The notes: a model not told the origin generated them from the sequence alone. Numbered from the stretch's first letter, positions 2,130 to 63,858 are shown. The stretch is 64,000 nt of DNA from Gammaproteobacteria bacterium (GCA_018674175.1 JABHAT010000016.1:1463-65462), one strand, 5' to 3'. A program made the numbers and translations.

Positions 2130-2179
2130 AACGTCATTAGTAGTTTATTATATAGCTCTTTTAGGAAAAACATATAATC

Positions 2180-3872: not shown

Positions 3873-3880
3873 TTAATTTT

Positions 3881-4459: not shown

Positions 4460-4486
4460 AGTATAATATAAAAAAATATAATTATT

Positions 4487-5044: not shown

Positions 5045-5057
5045 TATAAGCTTTTAT

Positions 5058-5297: not shown

Positions 5298-5331
5298 GTT
5301 AAAATCTTACAAACTATAAAGGAGTTATAAA

Positions 5332-5541: not shown

Positions 5542-5543
5542 TT

Positions 5544-6419: not shown

Positions 6420-6463
6420 AACAGTATATTAAATAACTCTATAACTTATGTATACTAAAAAAC

Positions 6464-6889: not shown

Positions 6890-6950
6890 TTATACATATA
6901 ATTATTTTTTTTATGTAGTACTATGATAAAAATTTATTTAGGACTACCTT

Positions 6951-7241
6951 ATGAAGCAACTTGTTAATACCATGAACTGGATCAAAAAAGATTATGCCTC
7001 GCACCCTTTTCGTTTTACGATTGAATTTATTGCTTGGCTAATTACAATTGGTTGTTCTGTTGTGATGGCAATGACAGTTCCTAACCCACCTCTTTTTGAA
7101 CTTTACATGGTCTGGATTTTTGGCTGCGTTCTTTATACTTGGGCAGCTTGGACTAGAGGATCTTTTGGAATGCTAGCAAATTACGTAGCCCTTACATTAA
7201 TTGATAGTGTAGGCTTATATAGAATAATAATTACAGGATAG
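6951..7241 (+). CDS. Small 3-TM membrane protein, unknown function
   Basis: 96 aa with three hydrophobic helices, Trp-rich. Locally higher GC than its neighbours suggests a constrained coding sequence. Confidence 0.5.
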   Translation: MKQLVNTMNWIKKDYASHPFRFTIEFIAWLITIGCSVVMAMTVPNPPLFELYMVWIFGCVLYTWAAWTRGSFGMLANYVALTLIDSVGLYRIIITG

Positions 7242-7572
7242 TATTAATAAGCTCTGGAGGTCTTCCAACTATAGCTTTAGTTTCAGTAACAAGTATAGGT
7301 CTCTCAATAAGGATAGGATTTTCTACTAAAGTTTCTATAATTTCTTTATCAGACATACTACTAAGATCTAAGTCTTTTTCTTTAATAATTTTTTCTTTTT
7401 TTCTAACTAGGTCTATTGGTTTAATTTTTAGCTTATCAATAATTTGAACTAATTCTGTAAACGTTATTTTTTCAGATAAATACAATTTTATTTTATAATT
7501 ATGAGCGCTTTCCTCAACAATTTTGAGTCCTTCTCGAGATTTGCTGCATTTTGGGTTGTGATAATAAATCAT
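7231..7572 (-). CDS. arsC: ArsC-family reductase (arsenate reductase/Spx-fold)
   Basis: 113 aa. N-terminal IYYHNPKCSKSREGL and C-terminal LIERPILV...GRPPE match glutaredoxin-type ArsC. Confidence 0.75.
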   Translation of the reverse strand: MIYYHNPKCSKSREGLKIVEESAHNYKIKLYLSEKITFTELVQIIDKLKIKPIDLVRKKEKIIKEKDLDLSSMSDKEIIETLVENPILIERPILVTETKAIVGRPPELINTIL

Positions 7573-7593
7573 TTTTTCCTCTATAAAAAATTA

Positions 7594-8112
7594 TCAATAT
7601 TTTTTTATTGAAAAAATATTGCTATCTATTAAATTACTTCCATTTAGCTCAAGAAGCTCTATTAAAACAAAGCAGCCTATTACTTTTGCCTTAGCTTTAT
7701 TTATTAATGATTCTGCGCACGCTAAAGAACCACCTGTAGCTATGAGATCATCGATAATAATAACTTTTTTATTGGCAATATTCTTGGATTTCTGTATCGA
7801 TAGTTTTGATTGCCCATACTCTAGAGAATAGCTTTTTTCTATTAAGTCACCAGGAAGTTTGCCTGGTTTTCTAATCATAAGAGAGCCAATACCAAGCCTA
7901 CTTGCTAATAATGTAGAAAAAAGAAACCCTCTTGATTCAATTCCAGCTATTAAGTCAACATCTAGATCTAATGCCTTAGTAGCAAAAATATCTATAACTT
8001 TTGTCATTGCATGATGGTTTAGTAATAAAGGGCTAATATCTTTGAAAAGGATACCTTTTTTTGGAAAATCTTTAGTATTACTTATATAATTGTCTAAATC
8101 AAAATCACTCAT
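7594..8112 (-). CDS. apt: Adenine phosphoribosyltransferase
   Basis: 172 aa. PRPP-binding motif VIIIDDLIATGGS and FKDISPLL. Confidence 0.9.
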   Translation of the reverse strand: MSDFDLDNYISNTKDFPKKGILFKDISPLLLNHHAMTKVIDIFATKALDLDVDLIAGIESRGFLFSTLLASRLGIGSLMIRKPGKLPGDLIEKSYSLEYGQSKLSIQKSKNIANKKVIIIDDLIATGGSLACAESLINKAKAKVIGCFVLIELLELNGSNLIDSNIFSIKKY

Positions 8113-8161
8113 AATTTAAAATACTAGAGATGTTTGGTTTGTGACTCCAATTTTATACAAA

Positions 8162-8237
8162 GTGGCGTCCCCAAGGGGAGTCGAACCCCTGTTGCCGAGA
8201 TGAAAACCCGGTGTCCTAGGCCTCTAGACGATGGGGA
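8162..8237 (-). tRNA. tRNA-Glu (anticodon UUC)
   Basis: The reverse complement reads GTCCCCATCGTCTAGAGGCCTAGGACACCGGGTTTTCATCTCGGCAACAGGGGTTCGACTCCCCTTGGGGACGCCA. It is near-identical in layout to E. coli tRNA-Glu. Anticodon stem CCGGG/CTCGG, loop TTTTCAT gives UUC. The 3' CCA is encoded. Confidence 0.9.
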
Positions 8238-8278
8238 CCCTAGAAAGTGTGAGATTTTGTAGTGGAATGGTCGTAATG

Positions 8279-9664
8279 TCAAGTAATCAAAATTTTAGCA
8301 GCTGAAAACCTTTTTATACAAGATTCTTTCCCAAGTAAATATATTGTGATGTCTATAGATGGTGACGACAACGACCCTGTTAAAGCTAATCTTGTTGGTT
8401 TAGCAAAATTAGGAAGATCTAGCTCAAGAGCATGCATAACTGTATCAATAACTTCTTTCACATTAATTAAAGTCCATTCTTCAACATTACTTAAATTTTC
8501 AGATAGCCTATCAAATATACTTTCGTTGTTTTTAATAAAAAATTTACTAGCTAATTTCTTATCAATATCAAAAATATCAGATAAAAAGAACTGACTTTCT
8601 TCAATAATCTCTTTAATTGTTTTACATCTGTCTCTTTGCGCTTCAATTATTTCAATAACTTTTACCTCACTGAAGTCTTTAAAGTCATCAGTTAAATGCA
8701 TAAATTCTTTATATAAATCATGTATTTCTAGTTCTTTTATAAAATATTTATTAAAAGAATAAAGCTTTTTGTAGTCAAATATTGAAGCCGATTTATTTAA
8801 ACCCTTAAGATTGAATAAGTTTACAAGTTCTTCTAGCGTGAATTTTTCTTTATCCCCTTCTGCCCAACCTAACCTCGCTAAGTAATTAATTATAGATATT
8901 GGCAGAATGCCTTCACTCCTAAAGTCATATGTGCTTGTGGCCCCATGTCTCTTCGATAACCTTTTTCTATCTTCACCCATTATTAACGGTATGTGCGTAT
9001 ATGTAGGCGTTTTATAACCTAATGCTTTCATCATATGGACTTGTCTATATGTGTTATTCAGATGATCATCTCCTCTTATAACGTTAGTAATGCCCATTTC
9101 CACATCATCTACGACAACTGTTAAGTTATATGTAGGACTTCCGTCTGCTCTTTGTATAATTAAGTCATCTAATTCTTTATTATTTACTGTAACAGGACCT
9201 TTTAAAGTGTCATTAAGTGTAATCTCACCATCTAAAGGAGTTTTAAAACGTACAACCGTATCTGCTGATTTTTCTAAGGACTTATCTCTATTTCTTCCAT
9301 CATATTTTGGCTTCAAACCTAGTTTTTGTTGCTCAGACCTAAGTTTATCCAAATCTTCTTTTGAGCAGTTGCAGTAATATGCGTTGCCAGATTCAAGAAG
9401 GTTATTTATGGCTTCTTTATATTTATCTACTCTATCGCTTTGATATATAAGACTGTCATCATGATTGATTCCAAGCCAATCTAAAGACTCAAGTATACTT
9501 TCCACATATTTAGCTTCAGATCTAGCTTTATCAGTATCTTCAATTCTGAGTAAAAATTTCCCACCTTGATTTTTGGCATATAGCCAATTAAATAAAGCTG
9601 TTCTAGCCCCGCCAATATGTAAATTACCTGTGGGACTGGGTGCAAATCTAGTTATAACCATCAT
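8279..9664 (-). CDS. gltX: Glutamyl-tRNA synthetase
   Basis: 461 aa. HIGH motif PSPTGNLHIGG and KMSKS-type motif RLSKRHG. Confidence 0.95.
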   Translation of the reverse strand: MMVITRFAPSPTGNLHIGGARTALFNWLYAKNQGGKFLLRIEDTDKARSEAKYVESILESLDWLGINHDDSLIYQSDRVDKYKEAINNLLESGNAYYCNCSKEDLDKLRSEQQKLGLKPKYDGRNRDKSLEKSADTVVRFKTPLDGEITLNDTLKGPVTVNNKELDDLIIQRADGSPTYNLTVVVDDVEMGITNVIRGDDHLNNTYRQVHMMKALGYKTPTYTHIPLIMGEDRKRLSKRHGATSTYDFRSEGILPISIINYLARLGWAEGDKEKFTLEELVNLFNLKGLNKSASIFDYKKLYSFNKYFIKELEIHDLYKEFMHLTDDFKDFSEVKVIEIIEAQRDRCKTIKEIIEESQFFLSDIFDIDKKLASKFFIKNNESIFDRLSENLSNVEEWTLINVKEVIDTVMHALELDLPNFAKPTRLALTGSLSSPSIDITIYLLGKESCIKRFSAAKILIT

Positions 9665-9732
9665 TATTACCTTGAAAAATGAGCGTAAGAGCTGTATTTT
9701 AATTCGTTTCGAATATAGACTGCAATCATATT

Positions 9733-10854
9733 ATGTTAATAGATGAATATAAAGCATTGAGTTCAAGAAAAGATTTTTTTATTGATCCTGAACAATTAAA
9801 AGCTATTAATTCTTTTCAAGAATTATATAACCGCATATTGGGTATAAAAAATGTAGGTGAATCAATATTAGGAAATATTGGGGCTAGCCTATTTAATAAT
9901 AGAGGAAATCAAAGAAATAAAGGTATATATCTCTATGGTGGTGTTGGAATAGGAAAAACTTTTTTAATGGATATGTTTTTCAAAGAACTCCCGATTAAGA
10001 AAAAAAAACGAATACACTTTCATAGATTTATGAATAATATTCATTCAAAACTAAATGATAAAAAAGATACTGTTAACCCCATAGATGAAATAGCTAAAGA
10101 AATTTCCTTAGATACAGATGTTTTATGTTTCGATGAATTTATAGTGAATGATATAGCTGACGCTATGATTTTAGGAGAACTATTAAAAGGCTTATTCTTA
10201 AACAAAGTTATTGTTGTATTTACTTCCAACACAGAGCCAAAAAATCTTTACTCAAAAGGACTCCAGCGAGAAAAATTTGCGTATGCAATAAAATTAATTG
10301 AAGAAAATTCAGAAATAATACATTTAGATAGTACCAAGGATTATAGACTACTGAAATTTGGTAATTTAAGCATGTATCATAGTCCAAATAATGAAGAAAC
10401 TGATCTCAAGATGCAGCAGTATTTTTCTACAATATCTCCAGATTGGTTTAACTGGTTTACCAGAAAACCTATCTTTGAGGGAACAACAATACCAGTTCAA
10501 AATAGAGATATAGATGTGAGATTTTTATCCTCTAATACGGTCTGGTTTAAATTTAAAGTAATATGCGGTGATGGAAGATCTCAAAATGACTATATTGAAA
10601 TATCAAAAATATATCAGAATGTTTTTATTTCTGATGTCCCAAAGATGAATAATAATCATATTGATGAAGCTCGTAGATTTATAAATATGATTGATGAATT
10701 TTACGATAGAAATGTTAAAGTTATAATCTCAGCTGATTCTTCTATTGATAGTATTTGCGAAATAGAAAGAATAAATACTGATTTTGAAAGAACTAAAAGT
10801 CGACTTAATGAAATGCAGTCTGACGAATATATGAAAAAAGAACATAAACAATAA
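9733..10854 (+). CDS. zapE: Cell division protein ZapE (AFG1-like ATPase)
   Basis: 373 aa. Walker A GGVGIGKT, Walker B LCFDEF, AFG1 family layout. Confidence 0.85.
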   Translation: MLIDEYKALSSRKDFFIDPEQLKAINSFQELYNRILGIKNVGESILGNIGASLFNNRGNQRNKGIYLYGGVGIGKTFLMDMFFKELPIKKKKRIHFHRFMNNIHSKLNDKKDTVNPIDEIAKEISLDTDVLCFDEFIVNDIADAMILGELLKGLFLNKVIVVFTSNTEPKNLYSKGLQREKFAYAIKLIEENSEIIHLDSTKDYRLLKFGNLSMYHSPNNEETDLKMQQYFSTISPDWFNWFTRKPIFEGTTIPVQNRDIDVRFLSSNTVWFKFKVICGDGRSQNDYIEISKIYQNVFISDVPKMNNNHIDEARRFINMIDEFYDRNVKVIISADSSIDSICEIERINTDFERTKSRLNEMQSDEYMKKEHKQ

Positions 10855-10868
10855 AAGAGATTATAAAA

Positions 10869-11843
10869 ATGAATGAACCAGTTAATGTAGTAGTTACAGG
10901 TGCAGCAGGCAATATTGCCTATTCTGCGATTTTTAGAGTTGCCGCCGGTCAGATGCTTGGTGAAAATCAACCTATAAACTTGATGTTAATAGATATTGAG
11001 CCTGCTATGAATGCTTTAAATGGCGTGAAATTTGAGCTTGAAGATTGCGCTTTTCCACTACTAAATTCTATAACAACCACATTTAATTTGAACCAAGGTT
11101 TTGAACAATGTGATTATGCGTTATTAATCGGTGCAAAACCAAGAATGAAAGGAATGGAAAGAAAAGATCTTTTAAAAGATAACGGTAAAATCTTTAAGCC
11201 GCAAGGAAAAGCAATAAATGAGGTTGCTAGTAAAAAAATAAAAGTTTTAGTTGTCGGAAATCCTGCAAATACAAATGCCTTAATTACTATGCATAATGCC
11301 CCAACCATTGATCCAAAACAATTCACATCTATGATGCGCTTAGATCATGATAGGTCTTTAGCGCAAGTAGCAAATAAATATAATACAAATATAAAAGAAG
11401 TGAAAAAAATTATTGTTTGGGGAAACCATTCAAATACACAAGTACCGGATCTTTCTAATGCAGAAGTTTCAGGAAAAAATATTAAAGACATAATGAATGA
11501 AGATTGGTATAAGAACGATTTTATACCCAGAATACAAAACAGAGGAGCGGAAATTATTGAAGCTCGAGGGTCTTCGTCAGCTGCTTCAGCTGCAAATGCT
11601 GCTATTACTCATATGAGAGATTGGGTTTCAGGGAATAATGATTGGCTAAGTATTGGTCAAATTTCAAATAGCAACCCATTTAATATTTCAGAAGATATAA
11701 TGTTTTCATTTCCATCAATATGTAACGAAGGCTCTTATGAGATGATAAAGAATATAGAGATGTCAGAAATTTTAAATGATTATATTAAGATTACAGAAAA
11801 AGAGTTAATCCAAGAAAGAGATTCAGTTTTAGATCTTCTATAA
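10869..11843 (+). CDS. mdh: Malate dehydrogenase (Thermus/cytosolic-type)
   Basis: 324 aa. VVVTGAAGNIAYS...FRVAAGQMLG...ELEDCAFPLL is closely similar to type-2 MDH. Confidence 0.9.
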   Translation: MNEPVNVVVTGAAGNIAYSAIFRVAAGQMLGENQPINLMLIDIEPAMNALNGVKFELEDCAFPLLNSITTTFNLNQGFEQCDYALLIGAKPRMKGMERKDLLKDNGKIFKPQGKAINEVASKKIKVLVVGNPANTNALITMHNAPTIDPKQFTSMMRLDHDRSLAQVANKYNTNIKEVKKIIVWGNHSNTQVPDLSNAEVSGKNIKDIMNEDWYKNDFIPRIQNRGAEIIEARGSSSAASAANAAITHMRDWVSGNNDWLSIGQISNSNPFNISEDIMFSFPSICNEGSYEMIKNIEMSEILNDYIKITEKELIQERDSVLDLL

Positions 11844-13576: not shown

Positions 13577-14326
13577 TTAAGAGCAAATCATACATTTTGG
13601 ATTTTTTTTAGTTTTTATAAAATCTACTGATAAATTTAAGCCATTAATAATGACTAACTTATTATCGTACGAAGATTTATTTCCGGTAATTATATTAATA
13701 CACTCCATAGCCATCATAGAACTTATCATGCCTACTAGAGGAGCAAGAACTCCCGTGTCAGAGCAAGAATTGTTATCTACTAAGTCTTCATAAGTACATT
13801 CATAACAAGCGCTTTTGGAAGAAATAACCGATAACAGTTGTCCAGAGTACCCTTCGACCGCGCCAATAATTAATTTCTTATTATTTTTATAACATGCTTC
13901 ATTAATAATTTTTCTTACAATAAAGTTATCTGTTCCATCAATTACAATATCTGAATCGATTATTATTTTTTTAACTTGAGAAGAAGTTGTAATTTTTTCA
14001 AAGTACTTATTAATAACTAAATCATTAAATTTATTTTTTAAATAGTTTTCTATAACGTCAATTTTTGATAAACCAATATCATCACTATTAAAATTTATTT
14101 GTCTTTGTAAATTTGTTTCCTCAACCGTGTCAAAATCTACAATATTAATTTTTTTTATACCAGATGAAGCTATGTATGTAGAAAGTAAGTTACCTAGTCC
14201 GCCCAAGCCAAATATCGTAACTTCTGAAGAATTAAGTTTTTGCTGACCTTCAATTCCAATATTCGGCAATAGTATATGTCTTGAATAGTACAAAAGATCT
14301 TTATCATTTAAATAACTAAATTCCAT
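13577..14326 (-). CDS. moeB: ThiF/MoeB-family adenylyltransferase (probable molybdopterin-synthase adenylyltransferase)
   Basis: 249 aa. YSRHILLPNIGIEGQQKL, nucleotide loop GLGGLGN, two CxxC pairs (CYEC and CMIC). mobA/mobB lie next door. Confidence 0.8.
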   Translation of the reverse strand: MEFSYLNDKDLLYYSRHILLPNIGIEGQQKLNSSEVTIFGLGGLGNLLSTYIASSGIKKINIVDFDTVEETNLQRQINFNSDDIGLSKIDVIENYLKNKFNDLVINKYFEKITTSSQVKKIIIDSDIVIDGTDNFIVRKIINEACYKNNKKLIIGAVEGYSGQLLSVISSKSACYECTYEDLVDNNSCSDTGVLAPLVGMISSMMAMECINIITGNKSSYDNKLVIINGLNLSVDFIKTKKNPKCMICS

Positions 14327-14327
14327 A

Positions 14328-14627
14328 TTATTTTTTTCTAGAGTTAAATTTTTCTAGCTGCTCTTTTGTTGCCTCTTTTTGATATTTTTCTTTCCATTGA
14401 CTGTAAGGCATGCCGTAAACAAAGTCTCTTGCCTCCTCATAAGATACTTCCATTCCTCTCTCTTTTGCGGCAGTCACATACCATTTTGATAAGCAGTTTC
14501 TACAGAAATCTGCTAGATTCATTAAGTCAATATTTTGAACCTCTGTTTTATTTTGCAAATGTTTTATTAAAGCTTGGAAAACATCAGCCTGAATTTCCAT
14601 TGTAAGTTTTTTATTGTTATCATTCAT
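14328..14627 (-). CDS. DUF1244-like protein
   Basis: 99 aa. The LADFCRNCLSKWY core resembles DUF1244. 1 nt upstream of moeB. Confidence 0.55.
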   Translation of the reverse strand: MNDNNKKLTMEIQADVFQALIKHLQNKTEVQNIDLMNLADFCRNCLSKWYVTAAKERGMEVSYEEARDFVYGMPYSQWKEKYQKEATKEQLEKFNSRKK

Positions 14628-14704
14628 AGTAAATTTAACTCCATAAATTTATTAAAGCATAGCTTATTATAAGGTAATATTTTGTAATTCTACAGAGGTG
14701 TTTT

Positions 14705-15286
14705 GTGTTAAAGAAAAATGATTTTTCAGTAGGAATTTTAGCTGGTGGTAAAGCTACAAGAATGGATAACCAGGATAAAGGTCTTGTTAAACTAAATGAT
14801 GTCCCTATGATAGAAAAACTTCTAAAAGAAATTTCACCTCATACTTCAAATATACTTATAAATGCAAACAGAACTATTAAGACATATAAAGAATACGGCT
14901 ACCCTGTGATTAAAGATCTGCTTAATGATTTTCAAGGGCCACTTGCGGGAATTTATAGCTTGCTAAAAAATATTGATACTGAGTATTTAATTACTTTACC
15001 CTGTGATTGCCCTAATTTTAGCTGGAAAGTTATTCAAAAAATGATCGATGAAGTAAAGCCTGGTGACAAGGTCTGCATTGCACACAATGGTCTCAGATCG
15101 CAGCCTGTATTTATGCTAGTATCAAAAACCAAAGTCGAATCATTATATAATTTTTTAAATAATGGTGATAGAAAGATTGATATTTGGTATCAAAGCAATG
15201 AACACAAATATATTTATTTTGATAAAAATGTAAGTTATTTTGATAATATAAATACGGTAGCGCAATTAAATGAATACAATAAATAA
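14705..15286 (+). CDS. mobA: Molybdenum cofactor guanylyltransferase
   Basis: 193 aa, GTG start. GILAGGKATRM and GPLAGI motifs. Confidence 0.85.
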   Translation: MLKKNDFSVGILAGGKATRMDNQDKGLVKLNDVPMIEKLLKEISPHTSNILINANRTIKTYKEYGYPVIKDLLNDFQGPLAGIYSLLKNIDTEYLITLPCDCPNFSWKVIQKMIDEVKPGDKVCIAHNGLRSQPVFMLVSKTKVESLYNFLNNGDRKIDIWYQSNEHKYIYFDKNVSYFDNINTVAQLNEYNK

Positions 15287-15797
15287 TAAAAAACTAATTG
15301 GTTTTGCCGCATATAGTGGCACCGGTAAAACTACATTAATAAAGCTAATAGTTAAATTATTAAAAGAATTAAATTTAAAAGTGTCAGTAATAAAACATGC
15401 TCATCATGACTTTGATGTTGATAAAATTGGTAAAGACAGTTATGAAATAAGAAAATCTGGAGCAGTGAATATGTTAATATCTTCTGCGAATAGATGGGCT
15501 TTAATGCATGAAAATACTAACAATTCTGAATTAAGTTTAAACGATTTAATTAACATATTAAACCCTCTTGATTGCGATATTATTTTAGTTGAAGGTTTTA
15601 AAGCAGAGAAATTCCCTAAAATTGAGCTATATAGAGAAGAAATAGGTAAAGGTCTTCTGCACACTTCGGATGAAAGTATAATAGCTATCGCTACTGACTC
15701 AAAATTAGAAATAAATAAAGATATAAAGATTCTCGATATTAATAACCCGCAAGAAATTGTTGATTTCATAATAAAATACTTAAATATTACAAAATAA
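15270..15797 (+). CDS. mobB: Molybdopterin-guanine dinucleotide biosynthesis adapter protein
   Basis: 175 aa. P-loop GFAAYSGTGKTTL and VEGFK motif. Overlaps mobA by 17 nt. Confidence 0.85.
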   Translation: MNTINNKKLIGFAAYSGTGKTTLIKLIVKLLKELNLKVSVIKHAHHDFDVDKIGKDSYEIRKSGAVNMLISSANRWALMHENTNNSELSLNDLINILNPLDCDIILVEGFKAEKFPKIELYREEIGKGLLHTSDESIIAIATDSKLEINKDIKILDINNPQEIVDFIIKYLNITK

Positions 15798-35822: not shown

Positions 35823-36410
35823 CTACTTTGAAAAATCTTTGCAAATCTCACTTAACTTATAATATTTTTCTCTAGATGCGAGAGATATTTTTTGGGGGCT
35901 ACTATAGTAGTTATTAGAAAAATACTTATCAAGTATGTTGTCTTTTAAAAAAAATGCATTAATATGTTTTTTACAATTAAAACGAATAGATTTAATTACT
36001 ATTAAAGGAGAATTAATATTTTTTGAAATTGCCAATGCTATAGAGTCTGATGTAGCATCCCAATTATTGGGTATATTGAAATCACATACTTCTTCATATG
36101 ATGGCATCCAAACCAATAGTTTTCTTGATTTATAATTTTTTTTTATACTTCTAATTGAATTAACAACGGTAAAATCTTTAAGCTCTTCTAAATTATCCTC
36201 TGTAAAATTAGTCATTCCTTTGATTGCTAATTTATGAGCTTTAAGGTCATCATATTTTTTCTCCTTCTGGTCATACCTGATATTATCAGCGTATTTTCCG
36301 CCTCCAAAAATTATTAAAAAACTTGTGTTTCGATTAAGCCTTATTGTATTTATCCATTTTTTTATATAGTCAGTAGATTGAAGACTACCACCAATTTTAA
36401 TAACTACCAC
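35823..36410 (-). CDS. Amino-acid-kinase-fold mini-kinase, MfnE/Orf19-like (COG2054-type)
   Basis: 195 aa. N-terminal VIKIGGSL, IFGGGKYAD, WDATSDSIA are AAK-fold nucleotide/phosphate motifs. Too short for Asp/Glu/UMP or isopentenyl-phosphate kinases, but the size matches the archaeal-type kinase found in methanofuran/H4MPT cofactor clusters (recalled, not searched). Confidence 0.55.
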   Translation of the reverse strand: MVVIKIGGSLQSTDYIKKWINTIRLNRNTSFLIIFGGGKYADNIRYDQKEKKYDDLKAHKLAIKGMTNFTEDNLEELKDFTVVNSIRSIKKNYKSRKLLVWMPSYEEVCDFNIPNNWDATSDSIALAISKNINSPLIVIKSIRFNCKKHINAFFLKDNILDKYFSNNYYSSPQKISLASREKYYKLSEICKDFSK

Positions 36411-37762
36411 TTAAATTCACCATTAGAAAAATATTTTATAAATACCGATACCTTCTCAAGACTTTCATGATATTCGTCAAGTGGATCAGAGTCATAAACA
36501 ATTCCTCCGCCAGCAGCAAAACTTATTTTATTTTCAGTTAACGTTATGGTCCTAATACAAATATTTGTATCCATATTATTATTTGCATCAAAGTAACCTA
36601 CTGAACCACAATAAATACCTCTTTTTCTATTTTCTAATTCACTAATAATTTCCATTGCTCTTTTCTTTGGCGCACCAGTAATTGACCCACCAGGAAAACA
36701 TGCTTTTAATATGTCTATAGAGGTAGTTTTAGGATTTAAAGTTCCCACAACAGTACTTACCATATGATGCACTGATGTATAACTTTCAATATCAAAAAGT
36801 TTTGTTACTTTCACAGAATGTAATTCACAACATTTGCTCAAGTCATTTCTCAAAAGATCCACAATCATTAAATTTTCTGCAATATTTTTTTCATCATTTT
36901 TTAGAATATTAATTTGCTCATAATCTAAATTTTTATCAATTAATCTTTTCAAGGTTCCTTTGATAGGCTTTGTTTCTATAAGACTATCTTTAATAGAAAT
37001 AAATCTTTCTGGAGATGAACTAATAATAAATTGATCACTTACTTTAAAAAATGAAGAATATGGGGCTGGATTAATCTTTCTTAAATCTTTATAAATATCC
37101 CATGCGTTGCCACTATAATTAACTTCAAAATTCTGAGAATAATTAACTTGATAGCAATCACCACTAGAGATATATTCCTTAATCTTCAAAACATTATTGA
37201 TATATTTTTCTTCAGATATGTTTTGCTTGAAATCAGAAAAATTATAGTTATGATTATATTTTACCTTAAGATTTTCAGAACTAAATTTAGTAATAATATT
37301 ATCAACAGCAGAGTTTTTCTCTAAAAAAGTTATCCAAGTTTCTTTTTTTTCATGGTCAACGACTATTGCCCAATCATAAAAACCAACAGCAATATCTGGG
37401 AAGACCTCACTATCATTATTATCTTCATTATTGCCTGGTATCGAATTAAAAGCCTCATAACCAAAATAACCAATCATCCCATTATTAAATGGAAGGTTAG
37501 TATCAAATTTTCTTATTTTGTAATACTTTTCTAAAATACAAAGAGGATTATCATAAAACGAAGATGTTAAATTATCTTCAATTACATTGATGTGATTTCC
37601 ATTACTGGTGACCTTTACTCTTGGGTTTGAAGACAATATGTCGTATCTTCCATAATCACCAACATCATTGCAGCTATCTAAAAATATAAACCAGTCGTTT
37701 TCATGAAGTAACTCTCCATAAACACACGAATTTTCATAATACTTTATTTTTTTCTTATGCAT
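36404..37762 (-). CDS. pabB: Aminodeoxychorismate synthase component I
   Basis: 452 aa. ETKPIKGT (PabB-type catalytic Lys; anthranilate synthases have PIAGT), ENLMIVDLLRND, FPGGSITGAPKKRAMEII, GGGIVYDS. Confidence 0.85.
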   Translation of the reverse strand: MHKKKIKYYENSCVYGELLHENDWFIFLDSCNDVGDYGRYDILSSNPRVKVTSNGNHINVIEDNLTSSFYDNPLCILEKYYKIRKFDTNLPFNNGMIGYFGYEAFNSIPGNNEDNNDSEVFPDIAVGFYDWAIVVDHEKKETWITFLEKNSAVDNIITKFSSENLKVKYNHNYNFSDFKQNISEEKYINNVLKIKEYISSGDCYQVNYSQNFEVNYSGNAWDIYKDLRKINPAPYSSFFKVSDQFIISSSPERFISIKDSLIETKPIKGTLKRLIDKNLDYEQINILKNDEKNIAENLMIVDLLRNDLSKCCELHSVKVTKLFDIESYTSVHHMVSTVVGTLNPKTTSIDILKACFPGGSITGAPKKRAMEIISELENRKRGIYCGSVGYFDANNNMDTNICIRTITLTENKISFAAGGGIVYDSDPLDEYHESLEKVSVFIKYFSNGEFKW

Positions 37763-37765
37763 GAT

Positions 37766-38797
37766 TTATTTATTTATAAAGTTCATTACTGCTAATGCTG
37801 AAGTCATATTTGTATAAACTTTATCTTTGTCAATATTTTTAATAGTCACATCATCAATGTCTTCTATTAATAAATATTTTACGCCACATTTATATGATAT
37901 TTCTTCAATCAAAAATCTACCTTCACCTATCGCGGAAATCGTTATATCATCAATTTTATTAGAAAATATTATTTTAATGTTTTCAATAATCTTTGAAATA
38001 AATAATTCTTTAAAATATCTTGAAAGTACAATCAGATATTCTCTCTCTGACTCTTTATAATCTAAACCTATTATTCTTGCTAGCCTAGTAAAAGAATTTA
38101 CTTTTGTAAACTGAAGATTATCTGAACCTAAGTAATCTAACTTAGAAAAATCTATATCATCATTAAGATTAAAAATATCACCAGTTGTAGCAAAAACCTC
38201 ATTAACTAATGAAATATTATTTCCCTTATATAAGACATTATCAGTCATCATTGACAGAGGTGTTCTTACAACACCTTGGTAAAGTAATGTTTTATTTACT
38301 AATCGCATATAATCATTAATATTACTACCAATGTGCATATCTTTAAATATGATATCTGTAGTAGTGGAGCCTATGTCAATAATTAAATCAATATTATTTT
38401 TACTATTAAGAAATTTTGAAGTTAACATCCAGTTTGTAGAGAATAATTTTTCAGTTTTATTAATTGCTGAATTATAGTCTACAAATTCATTAGTATTTGT
38501 ATAATAAAGTTTATTACCAATAATGTGATTCAAGCAATTTTTTAAAATATTAGTTATACCATGTTTTCTATCAATAAAGTTATCACAAGACTCTGCTGTT
38601 ATAGTAATAAAATTATAAATTTCATAATTCTTATAAATATTAGATATATATTTAAAAAATAATTTTATATCTGAAAAATCATCCCAAACTTTAATATTTT
38701 TTGTATGAAGATTAATGATTATAAAATTTTGGTCAAATACACATACTTTTGTATTTGCACCACCAATATCCCATCCTAAATATAATTTATTTTTCAT
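37766..38797 (-). CDS. ASKHA/hydantoinase-A-like protein, MfnF/Orf20-like (COG1548, TIGR03123-type)
   Basis: 343 aa. LGWDIGGANTK, ITAESCD, IIDIGSTTTDII, LLYQGVVRTP reproduce the pattern I recall for the H4MPT-linked C1 transfer pathway protein / MfnF family. Confidence 0.6.
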   Translation of the reverse strand: MKNKLYLGWDIGGANTKVCVFDQNFIIINLHTKNIKVWDDFSDIKLFFKYISNIYKNYEIYNFITITAESCDNFIDRKHGITNILKNCLNHIIGNKLYYTNTNEFVDYNSAINKTEKLFSTNWMLTSKFLNSKNNIDLIIDIGSTTTDIIFKDMHIGSNINDYMRLVNKTLLYQGVVRTPLSMMTDNVLYKGNNISLVNEVFATTGDIFNLNDDIDFSKLDYLGSDNLQFTKVNSFTRLARIIGLDYKESEREYLIVLSRYFKELFISKIIENIKIIFSNKIDDITISAIGEGRFLIEEISYKCGVKYLLIEDIDDVTIKNIDKDKVYTNMTSALAVMNFINK

Positions 38798-39767
38798 TTT
38801 TTATTTTCTTTAAAAAAATCTCGTTATTACTAATATTAAAATTATAATTAATATTATTTAAGAATTGTATTGGGCTGAATCCTAAAGATGTATTTAAACC
38901 TATATATGATGAAGTTAATCTTGGGTTTATTTCGAGAAGAAAAATATTATTATTTTCATCAAGAATAGCATCAATACCAAAAAAACCATGGTAACCACTA
39001 AAATTTGACATAATTTTATCAACAAATAATTTAAATTCTATAATCATATGATTATATTTACCAATAAAAACTTCTTCTAATGAAATTTCATGAGGAGACT
39101 TATGCTTATAAACTTGCTCATTTATTGAAATTATTATGAATTTTTTTTCGTTAGAAACTATATTTATACTAATTATTTTTCCATTTTTATAATCTTGAAA
39201 AAAATGCTTATTTGTTATTATTTTATCACTCTCCTCTAGGTCTTTTCTATTTTCAAAGATATACAGATTCTCAGATCCTAAACCATCACTAATTTTTGCA
39301 ACAATTTTTTTATTAGAATCAATTTCTTTATAATCATGATAAATATTAATTAAATTGTCATGGCAAGATTTTATGCTGTTGTATGTATTTTTTTTACAGG
39401 TTGTGATTTTAATGAATTCACTAGAGCAATTTATTAAACATACGCCCTTTTCTTCTAGGTTATCTACGATATTATACATTTCCATATTTTCTTCGGGAGC
39501 TAAAACTAATATTTTGTCATAGTTTTGATAATGCATTTTCATATCATCTACAGAGTTTAAATCATAATCTCTTGATATGAAGTCAATATCATTAAAAAAA
39601 AAATTATTTTTTTTATTTGCTAATAATGATATCTTTGAATTCGGGTAAAGTTCTGCAAAATCCTTTATTAGGCATTTTACAATCAATTTCGCCTCATTAA
39701 GTAATAATGAAGGAGAATTTTCACTATATTCTTCACCTAAAATATGTTCGTAAACTAATATATCCAT
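38787..39767 (-). CDS. ATP-grasp ligase, MfnD-like
   Basis: 326 aa. N-terminal MDILVYEHILGE, C-terminal FGIDAILDENNNIFLLEINPRLTSSY (ATP-grasp Mg-binding E-x-N). Resembles tyramine-glutamate ligase-type ATP-grasp proteins. Confidence 0.55.
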   Translation of the reverse strand: MDILVYEHILGEEYSENSPSLLLNEAKLIVKCLIKDFAELYPNSKISLLANKKNNFFFNDIDFISRDYDLNSVDDMKMHYQNYDKILVLAPEENMEMYNIVDNLEEKGVCLINCSSEFIKITTCKKNTYNSIKSCHDNLINIYHDYKEIDSNKKIVAKISDGLGSENLYIFENRKDLEESDKIITNKHFFQDYKNGKIISINIVSNEKKFIIISINEQVYKHKSPHEISLEEVFIGKYNHMIIEFKLFVDKIMSNFSGYHGFFGIDAILDENNNIFLLEINPRLTSSYIGLNTSLGFSPIQFLNNINYNFNISNNEIFLKKIKNEK

Positions 39768-39772
39768 AATTT

Positions 39773-40444
39773 ATGAAATTAATACCCGCAATAGATTTAA
39801 AAGATAATAAGGTTGTATTGGCTTCAGGAGGTAATAGGAGTAATTATAACCCACTGCCAACTTATCTTTCACCAACTTCTGACCCCATAATGTTTATAGA
39901 TTACCTTATATCTATCCATAATTTTAACACAATATATTTGGCAGATTTAGATTCTATTGAAAAATATAGTGTAAATAGTAAATTAATTAACTCAATACTA
40001 GAAAGATATAAAAATATAAGATTTATCATTGATAATGGCGTTAGAGAATTTTCACAAATCAATAAATATAAGTCAGAAAATTATATCCAGATAATAGCAA
40101 CTGAGAGTTATAAGGATTACAAATCTTTATTAAATAAAAAATTCAACAGCTATATACTTTCATTGGATTATTCTGAAGGTAAAGTGCTTTCAAAAAATAA
40201 AGACTACATGCTAATTAACCCAAAAAAAGTAATAAGTATGAGTTTAAATAATATAGGTTCAAATCATGGTCCAAACAAAGATAATCTTATTACTACAAAA
40301 AATATTTATCCGCTATCAAATATTATTGTTTCTGGTGGTGTTCGTAATAATAGTGATATTGAAAAACTAAAAAAAGAAGAAATTAAAGAGGTTATATTAC
40401 TAACAGCTATTCTTAAAAAGAGTATTTTATATAATAATTTATGA
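39773..40444 (+). CDS. HisA/HisF-family TIM-barrel protein (COG1411-like), not in a his operon
   Basis: 223 aa. MKLIPAIDLKDNKVVLASGG and IYLADLDSIE are ProFAR-isomerase-like N-terminal motifs, with a C-terminal VSGGVRN phosphate-binding loop. Confidence 0.6.
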   Translation: MKLIPAIDLKDNKVVLASGGNRSNYNPLPTYLSPTSDPIMFIDYLISIHNFNTIYLADLDSIEKYSVNSKLINSILERYKNIRFIIDNGVREFSQINKYKSENYIQIIATESYKDYKSLLNKKFNSYILSLDYSEGKVLSKNKDYMLINPKKVISMSLNNIGSNHGPNKDNLITTKNIYPLSNIIVSGGVRNNSDIEKLKKEEIKEVILLTAILKKSILYNNL

Positions 40445-41071
40445 TAAAATATTTTTAAATTTTTCAATTAAAGCTAATTCTATTTGACGACAAACTTCTT
40501 TCTTGCTGCAATTTGCATCTATTCTTTTGATTCTATTCTTATTATTATTTAGTTGGTACTTATAACCTTTATAAACATCTTCAAAAAAAGAGTTTTCAAG
40601 ATTTTCAAATCTATCTTTTTTTTTATTTTTTGGGAATCTTTTTTCAGCCAAGTTATATGGTAAATCAAAAAACATTGTTATATCTGGAATCATATTATCT
40701 GTAAAATTATCAATTAAAATATTAATTTTTTCTAAATTTATTTTTTTACCATAACCTTGGTACGCTATTGAGGCATCTATAAATCTATCACATAAAACCC
40801 AATAACCCTGATCTATTTTAGGCTTTATAATCTCCTCAATATGTTGATTTCTTATTGAAAATAATAGTAATAATTCTGCCTCTGCGGAAATATTTGTTTT
40901 GTTACTAAGCAAGATGTCTCTTAGAGATTCACCGTACTTTGTTCCTCCGGGCTCTCTAGTACAATATACTAAAATATTATTATCTTCTAAATATTTCTTA
41001 ATAGATTTTATGGTTGTTGATTTACCAACACCCTCAATACCTTCAAAACTAATTAATTTTCCTTTGCTCAT
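40439..41071 (-). CDS. tmk: Thymidylate kinase
   Basis: 210 aa. P-loop ISFEGIEGVGKST and DRF motif. Confidence 0.9.
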   Translation of the reverse strand: MSKGKLISFEGIEGVGKSTTIKSIKKYLEDNNILVYCTREPGGTKYGESLRDILLSNKTNISAEAELLLLFSIRNQHIEEIIKPKIDQGYWVLCDRFIDASIAYQGYGKKINLEKINILIDNFTDNMIPDITMFFDLPYNLAEKRFPKNKKKDRFENLENSFFEDVYKGYKYQLNNNKNRIKRIDANCSKKEVCRQIELALIEKFKNILS

Positions 41072-41074: not shown

Positions 41075-42073
41075 TTATTTCTTCTGATATTTATTTACAG
41101 CGTTTACATGATCTCTATAATTTGTTGAAAAAACATGCTTACCATTATTATTTGCCACAAAAAATAAAAATTTACTCTCTGCTGGTCTACTTGCTGCTCT
41201 TATTGAGCTTTCACTGGGTGAGCAAATTGGTGTTTTTGGTAAACCATTAATTCTATATGTATTATATTCATTCTTTTCTCGTAAGTCTTTTTTAGTAATA
41301 TTACCTTTGAAATTCTTAATTCCATATATTACAGTTGGGTCTGCTTGCAACCTCATATCTTTTCTCAATCTATTAATAAAAACACTTGCTATTAAAGGCT
41401 TTTCTAATAAATCAGAAGATTCTTTTTCAATTATTGAAGCCATAATAAGCATCTCATAAGGAGACTTGTATGGTAAAGAATAATCTCTATTCTTCCAATA
41501 ATCTAATAAAATACTTTCCATTTTTTGCGAACAACTCATAAGTATGTCGTTCAATAAGGCTCCTGAAGAAAATTTATACGTATCAGGAAAACACATTCCC
41601 TCATTAGTTAAAAATTTAATAGAAGATTTTCTTAAAGGCTCAGAAAAATTAATATTTTTTACATTATTTATATGATTATTTTCTACTAATAATTTAATAA
41701 TTTCTTTAAAACTAGATCCTTCAATAATAGTAATTTTTTCTTGGTATAAATTACCATCTAAAAATTTCTCTAAAATACTTAATTCTGTATCATTTTTAGA
41801 AATTTTATATTTCCCACTAATGAATTTAGGATTTATATTATACATGTAAGAAATTATTTTAAATCTTAAAGTGCTGCTAATAAGATTGCTATCTTTTAAA
41901 TCCCTAATAGTCTTTGTTACACTTTCTCCTTTTTCTATATAAAATATTTTTTTATTTTCATTATAGATAATAATATTTCTTGAATAATTTAAATAAGAAA
42001 AAATCAATAATAAAAGTATTGAAGATAAAAAAAATATTAATTTAACTGATAAAATTTTATTTATAGGCTTCAT
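41075..42073 (-). CDS. mltG: Endolytic murein transglycosylase MltG (YceG)
   Basis: 332 aa. N-terminal TM, ASIIEKES, YNTYRINGLPKTPICSPS. Confidence 0.85.
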   Translation of the reverse strand: MKPINKILSVKLIFFLSSILLLLIFSYLNYSRNIIIYNENKKIFYIEKGESVTKTIRDLKDSNLISSTLRFKIISYMYNINPKFISGKYKISKNDTELSILEKFLDGNLYQEKITIIEGSSFKEIIKLLVENNHINNVKNINFSEPLRKSSIKFLTNEGMCFPDTYKFSSGALLNDILMSCSQKMESILLDYWKNRDYSLPYKSPYEMLIMASIIEKESSDLLEKPLIASVFINRLRKDMRLQADPTVIYGIKNFKGNITKKDLREKNEYNTYRINGLPKTPICSPSESSIRAASRPAESKFLFFVANNNGKHVFSTNYRDHVNAVNKYQKK

Positions 42074-42875
42074 AGTTAATAATATTAATTAAATTTATAA
42101 TATTTTTATTTGATTTATATTTGTGCCCTTCTATGGAATTTATATTCCATATTAACCTTATAGAGTTGCAAAAGAATGCCCCATCATAATTAGTTATTGT
42201 ATTTTTTTTTATTTTTTTCTGTATAACTTTAGTTTTATTTTTTTTCAAAATCTTTATGATATTTAACTTCATTATTCCTTCAACACCAGATTGCTCTATT
42301 AGTGGAGTATAAAAAGTATTATTTCTTACAAAGAAAATATTGCTTGCTACACCTTCTATGACATATTCTTTTTTATCACATAATATTAACTCAGGGTATG
42401 CTTGTGTAATTTCACTTGTTGCTAAAACTTGCTCCAGTCTATTTGTGTGTTTTATTTTAGATAAACTATTACAATCACTAATGTTAGACTTTGCAAATTT
42501 TGTTTTAATTCCTTTTTGAGTATAAATTTTTGGATAATTGTGTAAAGGAGATGTAGTTAAAATGATATTTGGCTTTATATTGCCAACTCTAATGTTATAA
42601 CCTCTTCTTTTTACTGTGCCTCTTGTAATATTTATACTGAGTGAACAATTTCTTACACCCTTTAAACATTTTTTAATATGTCTATACAATAAATTAATAT
42701 CTAGATTTCTTATTTTTAATACTTTGCAACCTGATTTAATTCTTTCAATATGTTCATCAAGATTTTTAGGTTGGTTATTAACTACAAGGATTGTTTCAAA
42801 AACACTGTCGCCGTAAAGAAACCCTCTATCAAATATTGAAATACTTGAGCTAGATTTTCCATTAACTAAATTCAT
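42057..42875 (-). CDS. pabC: Aminodeoxychorismate lyase (class IV aminotransferase fold)
   Basis: 272 aa. DRGFLYGDSVFET. Conserved position between fabF and mltG. Confidence 0.75.
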   Translation of the reverse strand: MNLVNGKSSSSISIFDRGFLYGDSVFETILVVNNQPKNLDEHIERIKSGCKVLKIRNLDINLLYRHIKKCLKGVRNCSLSINITRGTVKRRGYNIRVGNIKPNIILTTSPLHNYPKIYTQKGIKTKFAKSNISDCNSLSKIKHTNRLEQVLATSEITQAYPELILCDKKEYVIEGVASNIFFVRNNTFYTPLIEQSGVEGIMKLNIIKILKKNKTKVIQKKIKKNTITNYDGAFFCNSIRLIWNINSIEGHKYKSNKNIINLINIINYEAYK

Positions 42876-61615: not shown

Positions 61616-62863
61616 ATGAAGAAAAAAATATATAGCTGTATGGATGACTATGATCCAAATTCAATATTTATTGAAGATGCATTAAAACAAATAAAAAAAA
61701 TATCAAAAAAAATAAATTCATATGAGTACGTAAATCTTTTAAATGCAAATAATAGAATTGTATATGAAAATATTAAATCAAGAATAAAAGTTCCAAATTA
61801 TGACAACTCAGCAATGGATGGTTATGCTTTAAATATAAAAGATACAAAAAATAATAACGTTTTTACTGTTGTAGGAACTTCACTAGCTGGAATACCATTC
61901 AAAGGTAAAATAAAAAAAAATGAATGCGTAAAAATTATGACTGGGGCAGTAATTCCTTATAATTGCAACATTGTAATCATGAAAGAGGAGACCGAGTCTG
62001 ATAAAAAAAGTATTATAATTACTTCTAAAAAAATAAAAATAAAACAAAATATTAGATTTTCTGGTGAAGATATAACACCTAATAAAGTAATAGTCAAAAA
62101 GAATCACATTGTTAATTCATCATCAATGGGTTTGCTGGCTTCTCAAGGAATAAATAAGATTAAAGTATTTAAAAATCCTGTTGTATCGTTTTTTACATCC
62201 GGAGATGAAGTTGTTGCAATAGATAAAAAATTACCATATGGAAAAGTTTATGATAGCAACAGATATACATTAACTGGAATGTTAGATAAAAATAATATTA
62301 AAATAATAGATTTAGGTCACGCTAAAGACAATATAAAAGATATTAAAAATAAATTTTATGAGGCAATAAAGAAATCAGATATAGTAATTTCAACTGGAGG
62401 AGTTTCAGTTGGTGATGCAGACTATATAAAAGAAGTTGTTAAGACCCTTGGAGATATTAATTTTTGGAAAGTTGCTGTCAAACCTGGGAGACCACTTGCA
62501 TTCGGAAAAATCAAAGATACTATATTCTTTGGTCTTCCTGGTAACCCAGTTTCCGTAATGGTTACTTTTCTTTTATTTGTATTACCATCAATTAATATGC
62601 TTTCTGGGAGAAATTTTGAAATGCTTTTTAAAGATGCAATTTTACAATCGGACATAAGAAAGCGTAAAGGTAGAGCAGAATTTCAAAGAGGATTAGCTCA
62701 ATATGATAATGGGAAAATCTATGTTGAATCTGTTGGTGAGCAAGGCTCAGGAATATTAAGTTCTATGAATAAAGCTAATTGCTTAATTTATCTTTCAGTA
62801 GAACAGGGATCTTTGAAAGTAAACGATAGCGTTAAAATTATAAAATTTAAAGATTATATTTAA
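61616..62863 (+). CDS. moeA: Molybdopterin molybdenumtransferase
   Basis: 415 aa. NSAMDGYAL, TGGVSVGDADY, KPGRPLAFG, GLPGNPVS. Confidence 0.9.
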   Translation: MKKKIYSCMDDYDPNSIFIEDALKQIKKISKKINSYEYVNLLNANNRIVYENIKSRIKVPNYDNSAMDGYALNIKDTKNNNVFTVVGTSLAGIPFKGKIKKNECVKIMTGAVIPYNCNIVIMKEETESDKKSIIITSKKIKIKQNIRFSGEDITPNKVIVKKNHIVNSSSMGLLASQGINKIKVFKNPVVSFFTSGDEVVAIDKKLPYGKVYDSNRYTLTGMLDKNNIKIIDLGHAKDNIKDIKNKFYEAIKKSDIVISTGGVSVGDADYIKEVVKTLGDINFWKVAVKPGRPLAFGKIKDTIFFGLPGNPVSVMVTFLLFVLPSINMLSGRNFEMLFKDAILQSDIRKRKGRAEFQRGLAQYDNGKIYVESVGEQGSGILSSMNKANCLIYLSVEQGSLKVNDSVKIIKFKDYI

Positions 62864-63297
62864 GTATTTTTTTTTACCCATTCTGAAGAGCTATCGACAA
62901 AAAATTCTTTTTTCCATAGTGGCGCATTATGCTTCAAATCTTCTAATATATATTTTACTGCTTCAATAGAATTTTTTCTGTGAGCTGACCAACAAGAGAC
63001 TGCTACTAAACAATTTTCTGGAAAAACTAAACCAACTTTATGCGCTATTAATATATTGTGAAGCTTGTAATCTTTTTTTGTATTTTCACTAAGCTTCGAA
63101 AGATATTTCTCTGTCATTTCAGGATAATGCTCTAATTTCATTGATATAACGTCATTCCTTACCGCATTTGTTTCACGCATATAGCCAATAAATATACTTT
63201 GCCCTCCAGAAAATTTTAAATCACAATTTTTGTTTTGATAATCCTCTATTAACTTATAAGGCTCTATTAATTCTGATGTTATTATTACTGAATTCAT
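62860..63297 (-). CDS. moaE: Molybdopterin synthase catalytic subunit
   Basis: 145 aa. IAHKVGLV...VAVSCWSAHRKNSIEA...LKHNAPLWKKE. Confidence 0.8.
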   Translation of the reverse strand: MNSVIITSELIEPYKLIEDYQNKNCDLKFSGGQSIFIGYMRETNAVRNDVISMKLEHYPEMTEKYLSKLSENTKKDYKLHNILIAHKVGLVFPENCLVAVSCWSAHRKNSIEAVKYILEDLKHNAPLWKKEFFVDSSSEWVKKNT

Positions 63298-63348
63298 AAA
63301 TTATATAATAGTATTGTTTATTTCATTAATAACTAATATTATCACTTT

Positions 63349-63858
63349 ATGAGCAATAAAATTAAATTAAATATAGCTGTTTTAACGATTTCAGATTCTC
63401 GAACAAAAGAGACTGACAAATCAGGAAATCTTCTTGCGAAGTTAATTGGAGAGTCAGGGCATAAGGTTACCGAACATTTTATCGTTAAGGACTGCATATA
63501 CTCTATAAGAAAAACTGTATCTTCTTGGATTGATAATAAATCTATAGATGTTGTTATAAGCACAGGAGGGACCGGAGTCACTGGAAGAGATGGAACGCCA
63601 GAGGCTGTAGAAGTTCTTTTTGATAAAAAAATTGATGGATTTGGAGAGATATTTAGATACATTTCATACAAGAAAATAAAGACTTCGACGGTTCAGTCTA
63701 GAGCTCTAGCAGGTGTGGCTAATTCTACATATATATTTTGCCTGCCTGGTTCGCCAGGTGCTTGCAAAGACGCGTGGTTAGACATTATTCAATATCAACT
63801 AGATTCTAATAACAAGCCTTGTAATCTTGTTGAGTTAATGCCAAGACTTAAGATTTAA
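63349..63858 (+). CDS. moaB: Molybdenum cofactor biosynthesis protein B (MogA/MoaB fold)
   Basis: 169 aa. IAVLTISDSR and VVISTGGTGVTGRDGTPEA. Confidence 0.8.
   Translation: MSNKIKLNIAVLTISDSRTKETDKSGNLLAKLIGESGHKVTEHFIVKDCIYSIRKTVSSWIDNKSIDVVISTGGTGVTGRDGTPEAVEVLFDKKIDGFGEIFRYISYKKIKTSTVQSRALAGVANSTYIFCLPGSPGACKDAWLDIIQYQLDSNNKPCNLVELMPRLKI

Follow-up and report, generated by a model that had tools for sequence, protein, structure and literature searches.

We analyzed a 64,000-nucleotide stretch of DNA from a Gammaproteobacteria bacterium (GCA_018674175.1 JABHAT010000016.1:1463-65462), which at its full length is referred to as the window, and in particular a module of five genes at positions 35,823 to 40,444. 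Four of these genes form an operon on the minus strand and the fifth is oriented divergently to it. The host belongs to a lineage of uncultured, streamlined marine gammaproteobacteria (genome size about 1.1 Mb, GC content about 30%), and proteins identical to those of the window occur in several metagenome-assembled genomes (MAGs) and on contigs from marine metagenomes, the longest of which measures 1.10 Mb. The five genes of the module are:

35823-36410, minus strand: MfnE-like small kinase of the bacterial 'orf21' type (195 aa), last gene of the operon
36404-37762, minus strand: PabB, aminodeoxychorismate synthase component I (452 aa)
37766-38797, minus strand: MfnF-like ASKHA-fold protein, bacterial 'orf9' (343 aa)
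38787-39767, minus strand: MfnD-like ATP-grasp ligase of the bacterial 'orf1' type (326 aa), first gene of the operon
39773-40444, plus strand: HisA/HisF-like (beta-alpha)8 barrel, bacterial 'orf17', COG1411/TIGR00734 (223 aa), divergent to the ATP-grasp gene

A preliminary description of this DNA had listed five packed genes with junctions of -7, +3, -11 and +5 nt and four sequence motifs. The open reading frame coordinates gave the same junctions, and PIKGT, GGANTK, GSTTTD and LEINPR were all found in the translations. The start codons of the ATP-grasp and HisA-like genes are divergent and only 5 nt apart (window 39767-39773), the HisA-like gene and the convergent tmk gene overlap at their 3' ends by 6 nt (40439-40444), and 1 nt lies between the stop codons of the kinase gene and of perM. 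Due to the close divergent starts and the overlap with tmk, the promoters of both units must sit within neighbouring coding sequences.

Profile searches placed each of the five proteins in a family. The kinase matched Pfam AA_kinase with 24.7 bits and the NCBIfam model MfnE (NF040622) with 66.3 bits (E 2.9e-18), far short of the 300 bits that are set as cut-off for the archaeal equivalog. When this protein was used in tblastn, the gene directly 3' of pabB or mfnF was matched in more than 50 methylotroph loci at 23-35% identity. It retains 74% of the conserved columns, defined here and below as those at least 90% conserved among canonical homologues, and its substitutions are conservative. PabB scored 382 bits with TIGR00553, above the cut-off of 328.4, and matched Chorismate_bind (E 2e-92); its catalytic-lysine motif appears as KPIKGT in the translation. 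For the ASKHA-fold protein, TIGR03123 ('probable H4MPT-linked C1 transfer pathway protein', where H4MPT is tetrahydromethanopterin and C1 one-carbon) gave 201.2 bits, short of the cut-off of 244.1, and NCBIfam MfnF (NF040623) gave 125 bits (E 3.4e-36), short of the cut-off of 520. The conserved archaeal protein of PDB entry 3C0B, an MfnF-type structure, was matched with E 1.5e-25, and among 2391 homologues those outside the host lineage are named 'H4MPT-linked C1 transfer pathway protein'. The ASKHA phosphate motifs, the homology to 3C0B and the position between orf1 and pabB identify this protein as MfnF-like, the Orf9 of bacteria. DIGGANTK and DIGSTTTD are invariant across 23 MfnF-like sequences of the lineage, and the shortfall of both scores fits a strong AT-driven divergence, as the lineage keeps 64% of the canonical conserved columns.

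Similarly, the ATP-grasp protein scored 66 bits with Pfam ATP-grasp_3 (PF02655; cut-off 23.2) and 84.5 bits (E 8.4e-24) with NCBIfam MfnD_Meth (NF040722; cut-off 400). In all islands an ATP-grasp gene immediately precedes mfnF, and the window gene is its orthologue by position; it differs from orfY/myfA and orf5/myfB, which are encoded elsewhere in the lineage. The barrel protein scored 66.2 bits with His_biosynth (PF00977; cut-off 23.6) and 90.1 bits with hisAF_rel (TIGR00734; cut-off 179.85), and its divergent slot beside orf1 is conserved across canonical islands. These best matches agree with the MfnE-, MfnF-, MfnD- and COG1411 HisA-like assignments and with the genuine PabB that had been proposed before. 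Judged by their scores, the four non-PabB proteins are homologous to the archaeal and curated families but strongly diverged from them.

For a comparison of gene order, one genome per GTDB species was scanned with an alignment of MfnF-like proteins and 12 local window proteins were mapped by tblastn onto the resulting 80 loci. A HisA-like gene divergent to ATP-grasp, MfnF-like, PabB and MfnE-like genes is the standard order in methylotroph loci, as seen in Methylophaga (L011), Methylococcales (L014, L041, L052), Methylomonas (L080, L081), Methylotenera (L064, L066) and Methylophilaceae (L025, L045); in Paraburkholderia and Caballeronia the block is present without pabB. The immediate neighbours of orf17 in most of the 80 loci are fae, orf7, orf5 and mch, and the opposite side of the block in islands is occupied by fhcCDAB or by mfnB-DUF447-DUF6513. 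We tentatively take orf19 and orf20 to be the DUF447 and DUF6513 matches. Orf9, Orf21 and Orf22 of M. extorquens correspond to MfnF, MfnE and MfnB, respectively, and M. flagellatus has an additional ATP-grasp gene, orf1, that is closest to MfnD (PMC8141765). The H4MPT genes of Methylophilaceae comprise orfY, mch, orf5, 7, 17, 1 and 9, pabB, orf22, 19 and 20, and afp (PMC4109929), and an association of pabB with H4MPT biosynthesis has been described as common (PMC3615186).

The link to bacterial H4MPT islands that the preliminary description had drawn is thus supported by canonical synteny. In contrast, its naming of the block as orf19-orf22 has to be replaced, as the window block is orf17 divergent to orf1 (MfnD-like)-orf9 (MfnF)-pabB-orf21 (MfnE) of H4MPT/methylofuran islands and orf22 is MfnB. 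Nor is a fusion with pabB a peculiarity of this genome: the loci of Methylophaga, Methylococcales, Methylotenera and Methylophilaceae have pabB in the same slot, and the proposed neighbourhood comparison showed pabB together with the block in methylotroph loci as well as in relatives from the lineage. Since Methylophaga, Methylococcales and Methylophilaceae share the order, pabB inside the block is ancestral and not newly fused.

No other H4MPT-island gene was detected in the window by tblastn with 15 H4MPT-island proteins, as had been stated for fae, mch and fhc, and the 10-kb flanks on each side contain housekeeping genes only. Some searches for the rest of the pathway led to other organisms. 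With an AT-rich Mch query, 120 of the 120 listed matches were SP4045-type sequences (76-100% identical; see below) from islands that contain the module, and a search of representatives with Mch was equally uninformative, as proteobacterial Mch collapses into few 50% clusters. The sole strongly AT-biased Mch representative (P0405) is archaeal and lies among Trm56, EMG1 and TFIIE genes. In the top clusters examined from a Fae search (P0462, P0505, P0488) fae adjoins orf17, and they therefore belong to other lineages.

A metagenome scan for the invariant Fae motif QAVQMFGPAQ, back-translated with A/T at third positions and with proline as CCT in order to avoid SP4045-type codons, retrieved locus L134 (30.2% GC), with the order mch (part)-orf5-orf7-fae-PTPS-like-holB-ykuD...acs and no module beside fae. 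Exact copies of L134 proteins (HolB MBT3520474, PTPS MBT3520473, orf7 MBT3520471, orf5 MBT3520470) and of window proteins (AcnA MBT3520520, FabF MBT3520528, SdhA MBT3520550) occur in one MAG series, which links the L134 locus to the window genome. For this MAG (MBT3520xxx) co-membership alone was used, as accession distance is not physical in a fragmented MAG and the direction of numbering does not fit. The exact orf5 protein is also encoded on a contig of 1,103,783 bp. In LRMED-300, Fae (MFL2549866) and SdhA (MFL2549822) are on one 1.06-Mb contig at a distance of 44 accession numbers, in agreement with the number of genes counted when going left from sdhA and past the edge of the window. Around orf5 (L219, L220) lie rmuC-purL, mptG-mtdB-orfY-mch-orf5-orf7-fae-PTPS and holB-ykuD...acs-rhodanese-SDR-CMAS, in this order. 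L094 is 99.9% identical to window positions 1-11152, reaches 5.9 kb beyond the window and shares an overlap with L220 and L219 (93-95% identity), so that mptG...fae comes to lie between about -17 and -10 kb, oriented as in the window.

At the L219/L220 loci, Mch scored 402 bits with TIGR03120 (cut-off 229), Fae 235 bits with TIGR03126 (cut-off 118) and MptG 197 bits with TIGR00144, the beta-RFAP synthase family (cut-off 113.5); orf5 encodes an MptN-like RimK ligase and MtdB has an Mpt_N domain. The same genome type hence encodes Fae, MtdB, Mch and MptG of the H4MPT pathway, and the fae-PTPS-holB junction is kept in other species of the lineage (L160, L108, L126, L144, L213, L152). The module is therefore not the orphan for which it had been taken, and the earlier suggestion that it makes a cofactor for an H4MPT pathway encoded elsewhere gains support from mptG, mtdB, orfY/myfA, mch, orf5/myfB, orf7 and fae. 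Directly after fae (L219:12435-13577; also in L098, L148, L183 and L195) a double-length PTPS/QueD-like protein of 380-406 aa is encoded, in which the 6PTHBS model matches the C-terminal half only; this protein might act in the pterin branch of H4MPT synthesis. Farther along, between a MazG-like gene and acs, strains L219 and L134 carry a gene for 149 aa and a defence-like gene for a ResIII/Z1-domain protein of 616 aa (L219:16770-19066), an insertion that is absent from the strain with the 1.10-Mb contig (L220:16759-16807).

The preliminary description had also considered that the kinase, the MfnF-like protein and the ATP-grasp ligase act like FolK, FolP and FolC on an aromatic amine derived from PabB, yielding a non-canonical conjugate of para-aminobenzoate (pABA). 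Formally, the two branches resemble each other in the pyrophosphorylation of a heteroaryl-methanol, the displacement of pyrophosphate (PPi) by an aromatic nucleophile and the ligation of glutamate. Also, PabB is encoded in one operon with all three enzymes, the MfnF of the lineage is altered at several polar positions conserved in canonical homologues, and mfnB was not found in the window, its flanks or the mptG...holB locus. However, ordinary methylotrophs that make standard H4MPT and methylofuran (MYFR) have pabB in the same slot, so that its position is canonical and implies nothing new, and with this the main premise of such a route falls. In addition, the genome encodes a consumer of pABA (MptG), enzymes for MYFR polyglutamylation (MyfA and MyfB), Mch and Fae, and the core ASKHA and ATP-grasp motifs and most conserved columns are retained in the module. 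FolK, FolP and FolC have no sequence relationship to the module proteins, and pABA as the nucleophile is unsupported. We consider a repurposed folate-like route extremely unlikely, and it is not needed to explain the module.

The separation of the module from mptG...fae can be followed in relatives and in two neighbouring features of the window:

40439-41071, minus strand: tmk, marking one presumed inversion breakpoint; the HisA-like gene abuts it where holB is expected
42057-42875, minus strand: pabC, which encodes aminodeoxychorismate lyase and is the partner of pabB in function (identical contigs carry a precomputed Pfam annotation as Aminotran_4)

The relatives L148 (36% GC) and L098 keep fae-PTPS, orf17 and orf1-mfnF-pabB-mfnE together, and in L148 mfnE is followed by perM and then by leuS, which is 60% identical to that of the window. 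The classical enterobacterial order, as on the E. coli map, is fabF-pabC-mltG-tmk-holB. The window has no holB, which in this genome type adjoins the PTPS-like gene and fae, and the layout of the window genome is PTPS(+) holB(+), about 50 kb of sequence, and orf1(-) orf17(+) tmk(-). When the segment that runs from holB to orf17 is turned around, PTPS(+)/orf17(-) and holB(-)-tmk(-) are both regained. The two unusual junctions would therefore be accounted for by one ancient inversion of about 50 kb that all lineage members examined have in common. With breakpoints between PTPS and orf17 and between tmk and holB, it would also explain why the module lies inside the fabF-pabC-mltG-tmk housekeeping block, and it would have brought pabC, now within three genes of pabB, close to it. 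The orphan-like appearance would be due to this old inversion and to the 64-kb size of the window, as the partner genes are found 10-17 kb outside of it. The block adds a new and highly diverged member to a known gene cluster, and was probably parted from its island by rearrangement.

With 25.1% GC, versus 29.6% for the whole window, the module contains the lowest 1-kb bin of the window (22.6%, inside the mfnF and ATP-grasp genes). However, tmk, mltG and pabC are as AT-rich as the module (23-25% GC), and the low GC content is therefore not specific to it. Horizontal transfer as its cause was rejected on this ground and is also countered by a context that is kept down to relatives whose LeuS is 57% identical. 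Low GC marks genes under weak constraint in a genome that is AT-rich as a whole, and not DNA of foreign origin.

At least five species-level relatives retain the context fabF-pabC-mltG-tmk-[module]-perM-nhaA-leuS, and in these MfnF is 55% (L007), 53% (L009, a 1.06-Mb contig), 43% (L008), 38% (L088) and 34% (L013) identical and all module reading frames are intact. Module genes diverge faster than leuS and fabF: in comparison with L007, the ATP-grasp, mfnF and orf17 genes are 49-56% identical, as against 74-88% for leuS and fabF. Together with the lowest GC of the window and the absence of mfnE beside pabB in two relatives, this pace might suggest that the four non-PabB genes are no longer needed and survive as a relic because they share a transcription unit with the essential pabB. 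We regard this as very improbable, since the frames have stayed intact in those relatives, down to 34% identity, despite a streamlined genome of about 1.1 Mb, and since the partner genes myfA and myfB, with no other known role, are retained. Cofactor-biosynthesis genes evolve at an equal pace in AT-rich groups with complete islands, where L091 and L089 share 45% identity for myfA and 54% for mfnB. Of the canonical conserved columns, the lineage keeps 64-74% versus 74-80% in the comparably AT-rich complete-island group, and for PabB the values are 81% and 85%. By these figures, the module shows no sign of decay and only a modest extra divergence.

Most probably, the module represents the methylofuran-core and pABA part of a classical bacterial H4MPT/methylofuran island that was split from its other half by the inversion. 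Based on homology with the archaeal Mfn enzymes and on the genetics of M. extorquens and M. flagellatus, the following sequence of reactions can be proposed. Orf1, the ATP-grasp ligase, would ligate glutamate to tyrosine or tyramine, and the Orf21/MfnE-like kinase would convert the furan-methyl phosphate F1-P to the pyrophosphate F1-PP. In the reaction predicted for the Orf9/MfnF-like protein, the phenol of the tyrosine/tyramine-glutamate displaces PPi of F1-PP, giving the methylofuran core, and MyfA and MyfB from the other half of the island would extend the polyglutamate chain. Orf17 probably carries out a required step of methylofuran synthesis, as in M. extorquens. PabB and the nearby PabC would provide pABA for the RFAP synthase MptG, and thereby for H4MPT, and for folate. 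The cofactors would then serve Fae, MtdB, Mch and presumably Fhc in the oxidation of formaldehyde to formate.

An older proposal assigned the archaeal homologue MJ0703 a role in H4MPT biosynthesis, and the established chemistry of HisA is an Amadori-type rearrangement. It might therefore be that the block, or at least orf17, serves H4MPT instead of methylofuran biosynthesis: an operonic pabB supports H4MPT synthesis, and a ribofuranosyl-aminobenzene intermediate could undergo such a rearrangement on a HisA-like fold. In M. extorquens, however, deletion of orf17 (PF00977, HisA-like), of myfA (orfY) or of myfB (orf5) abolished methylofuran, and the orf17 mutant, although devoid of methylofuran, still contained methenyl-dephosphotetrahydromethanopterin (PMC8141765). 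As the MfnE and MfnF homologues also indicate furan chemistry, a role in H4MPT instead of methylofuran synthesis is unlikely.

Several points weigh against the assignment of the module to methylofuran synthesis or against its proposed history. All four non-PabB proteins score under the curated NCBIfam equivalog cut-offs. The MfnF-like proteins of the lineage all carry H15N, E170T, R210N/C/Y and K230F/Y at polar positions that are at least 90% conserved; the AT-rich SP4045-type group retains residues 15, 170, 210 and 230 as in canonical homologues. These substitutions may reflect a shift in a detail of the substrate, such as the choice between tyrosine and tyramine. Two relatives, L008 and L013, have no MfnE-like gene next to pabB, which is followed directly by perM (L008:12383-12402, L013:10170-10206), and SP4045-type islands (L087, L089, L091) likewise have no mfnE beside pabB; the kinase step seems to be dispensable or encoded elsewhere. 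fhcABCD, which encodes the only known user of methylofuran, and mfnB/orf22, the gene for the synthase of the furan ring, were found neither in the window nor in its 10-kb flanks nor in the mptG...holB locus, the same regions in which DUF447, DUF6513 and afpA were not located in the lineage, and upstream of mptG there are purL and rmuC, not fhc. Finally, the inversion is deduced from its junctions and not from a whole-genome reconstruction.

The retention of myfA and myfB, for which no other role is known, makes it likely that fhcABCD and mfnB are present elsewhere in the genome. If FhcABCD and MfnB had truly been lost, purifying selection could have kept orf17, orf1, mfnF, mfnE and pabB for another cofactor of the aryl ether or amide type, such as a conjugate based on pABA or tyrosine that functions elsewhere than in the classical Fhc reaction, a scenario that strikes us as quite improbable. 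In the literature, we found nothing specific that links SAR86 or the window lineage with H4MPT.

The window also contains the molybdopterin/molybdopterin guanine dinucleotide (MGD) genes moeB, mobA, mobB, moeA, moaE and moaB (13577-15797 and 61616-63858), and moaA, just outside of it (L093:10507-11517), completes the full gene set. The presence of all these molybdenum-cofactor genes in so small a genome (about 1.1 Mb) implies that a molybdoenzyme has been retained, which could be a formate dehydrogenase acting downstream of the H4MPT pathway.

In comparison with the 'archaeal-like' islands known from methylotrophs among the Beta- and Gammaproteobacteria (Methylobacillus flagellatus, Methylotenera, Methylophaga, Methylococcales), the window block has the same five families in the same order and orientations, with orf17 divergent and pabB between mfnF and mfnE, and the genome likewise has mptG, mtdB, orfY, mch, orf5, orf7 and fae. 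In contrast to these islands, the window proteins are only 20-47% identical and, PabB excepted, under curated cut-offs, the block is set between tmk and perM, apart from fae and orf7, and the host, unlike cultured methylotrophs, is a marine gammaproteobacterium of heterotroph-like character (genome of about 1.1 Mb, about 30% GC). With archaeal MfnD (MJ0815), MfnE (MJ0458), MfnF (MJ0840) and the HisA-like MJ0703 the module proteins share homologous folds and significant profile matches, and presumably also pyrophosphorylation, displacement by a phenol and glutamate ligation, although their scores are far under the equivalog cut-offs and mfnA, mfnB and mfnC are missing near the window block. Bacterial methylofuran differs from the archaeal cofactor by tyrosine or tyramine, by a long polyglutamate chain and by its user, which is Fhc and not formyl-methanofuran dehydrogenase.

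The mechanism proposed is ordinary, a known cofactor-biosynthesis block in its known role, and the value of the case is ecological and evolutionary. It illustrates how, in a window-based scan, one inversion may give half of a pathway island the look of an orphan, and minimal genomes confirm that the HisA-like Orf17 travels with mfnF and orf1.

SP4045-type loci (L087, L089, L091) come from likewise streamlined, abundant marine gammaproteobacteria with 28-30% GC and share orf17 and orf1-mfnF-pabB as well as fae, mch and mtdB with the window lineage, to which they are only distantly related (DusA 40%, MobA 42% identity). Their island is contiguous, with fhcCDAB-mptG-mtdB-orfY-mch-orf5-orf7-fae followed by orf17, orf1-mfnF-pabB and mfnB-DUF447-DUF6513-afpA, and its flanks hold SCO1/MauG-like and AhpC genes at one end and a MobA-like gene with dus at the other. 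The Mch and Fae clusters of the SP4045 type rank with the most abundant ones of marine metagenomes, with P0207 present in 143 index blocks. These loci probably correspond to the GTDB genus GCA-2705445, for which a complete H4MPT pathway has been reported (bioRxiv 10.1101/2022.08.12.503524). Compact H4MPT islands were also seen in other very AT-rich marine groups (L171, L120 and L174 with 24-25% GC; L166, L106, L109 and L118 with 26-28%), some without pabB between mfnF and mfnB and some with mfnE after afpA. The H4MPT pathway thus seems to be widespread in streamlined ocean bacteria, and the window lineage, an abundant and very streamlined marine gammaproteobacterium that would keep the capacity for H4MPT/methylofuran-dependent formaldehyde oxidation, adds to recent reports that this pathway is widespread among oligotrophic ocean bacteria.

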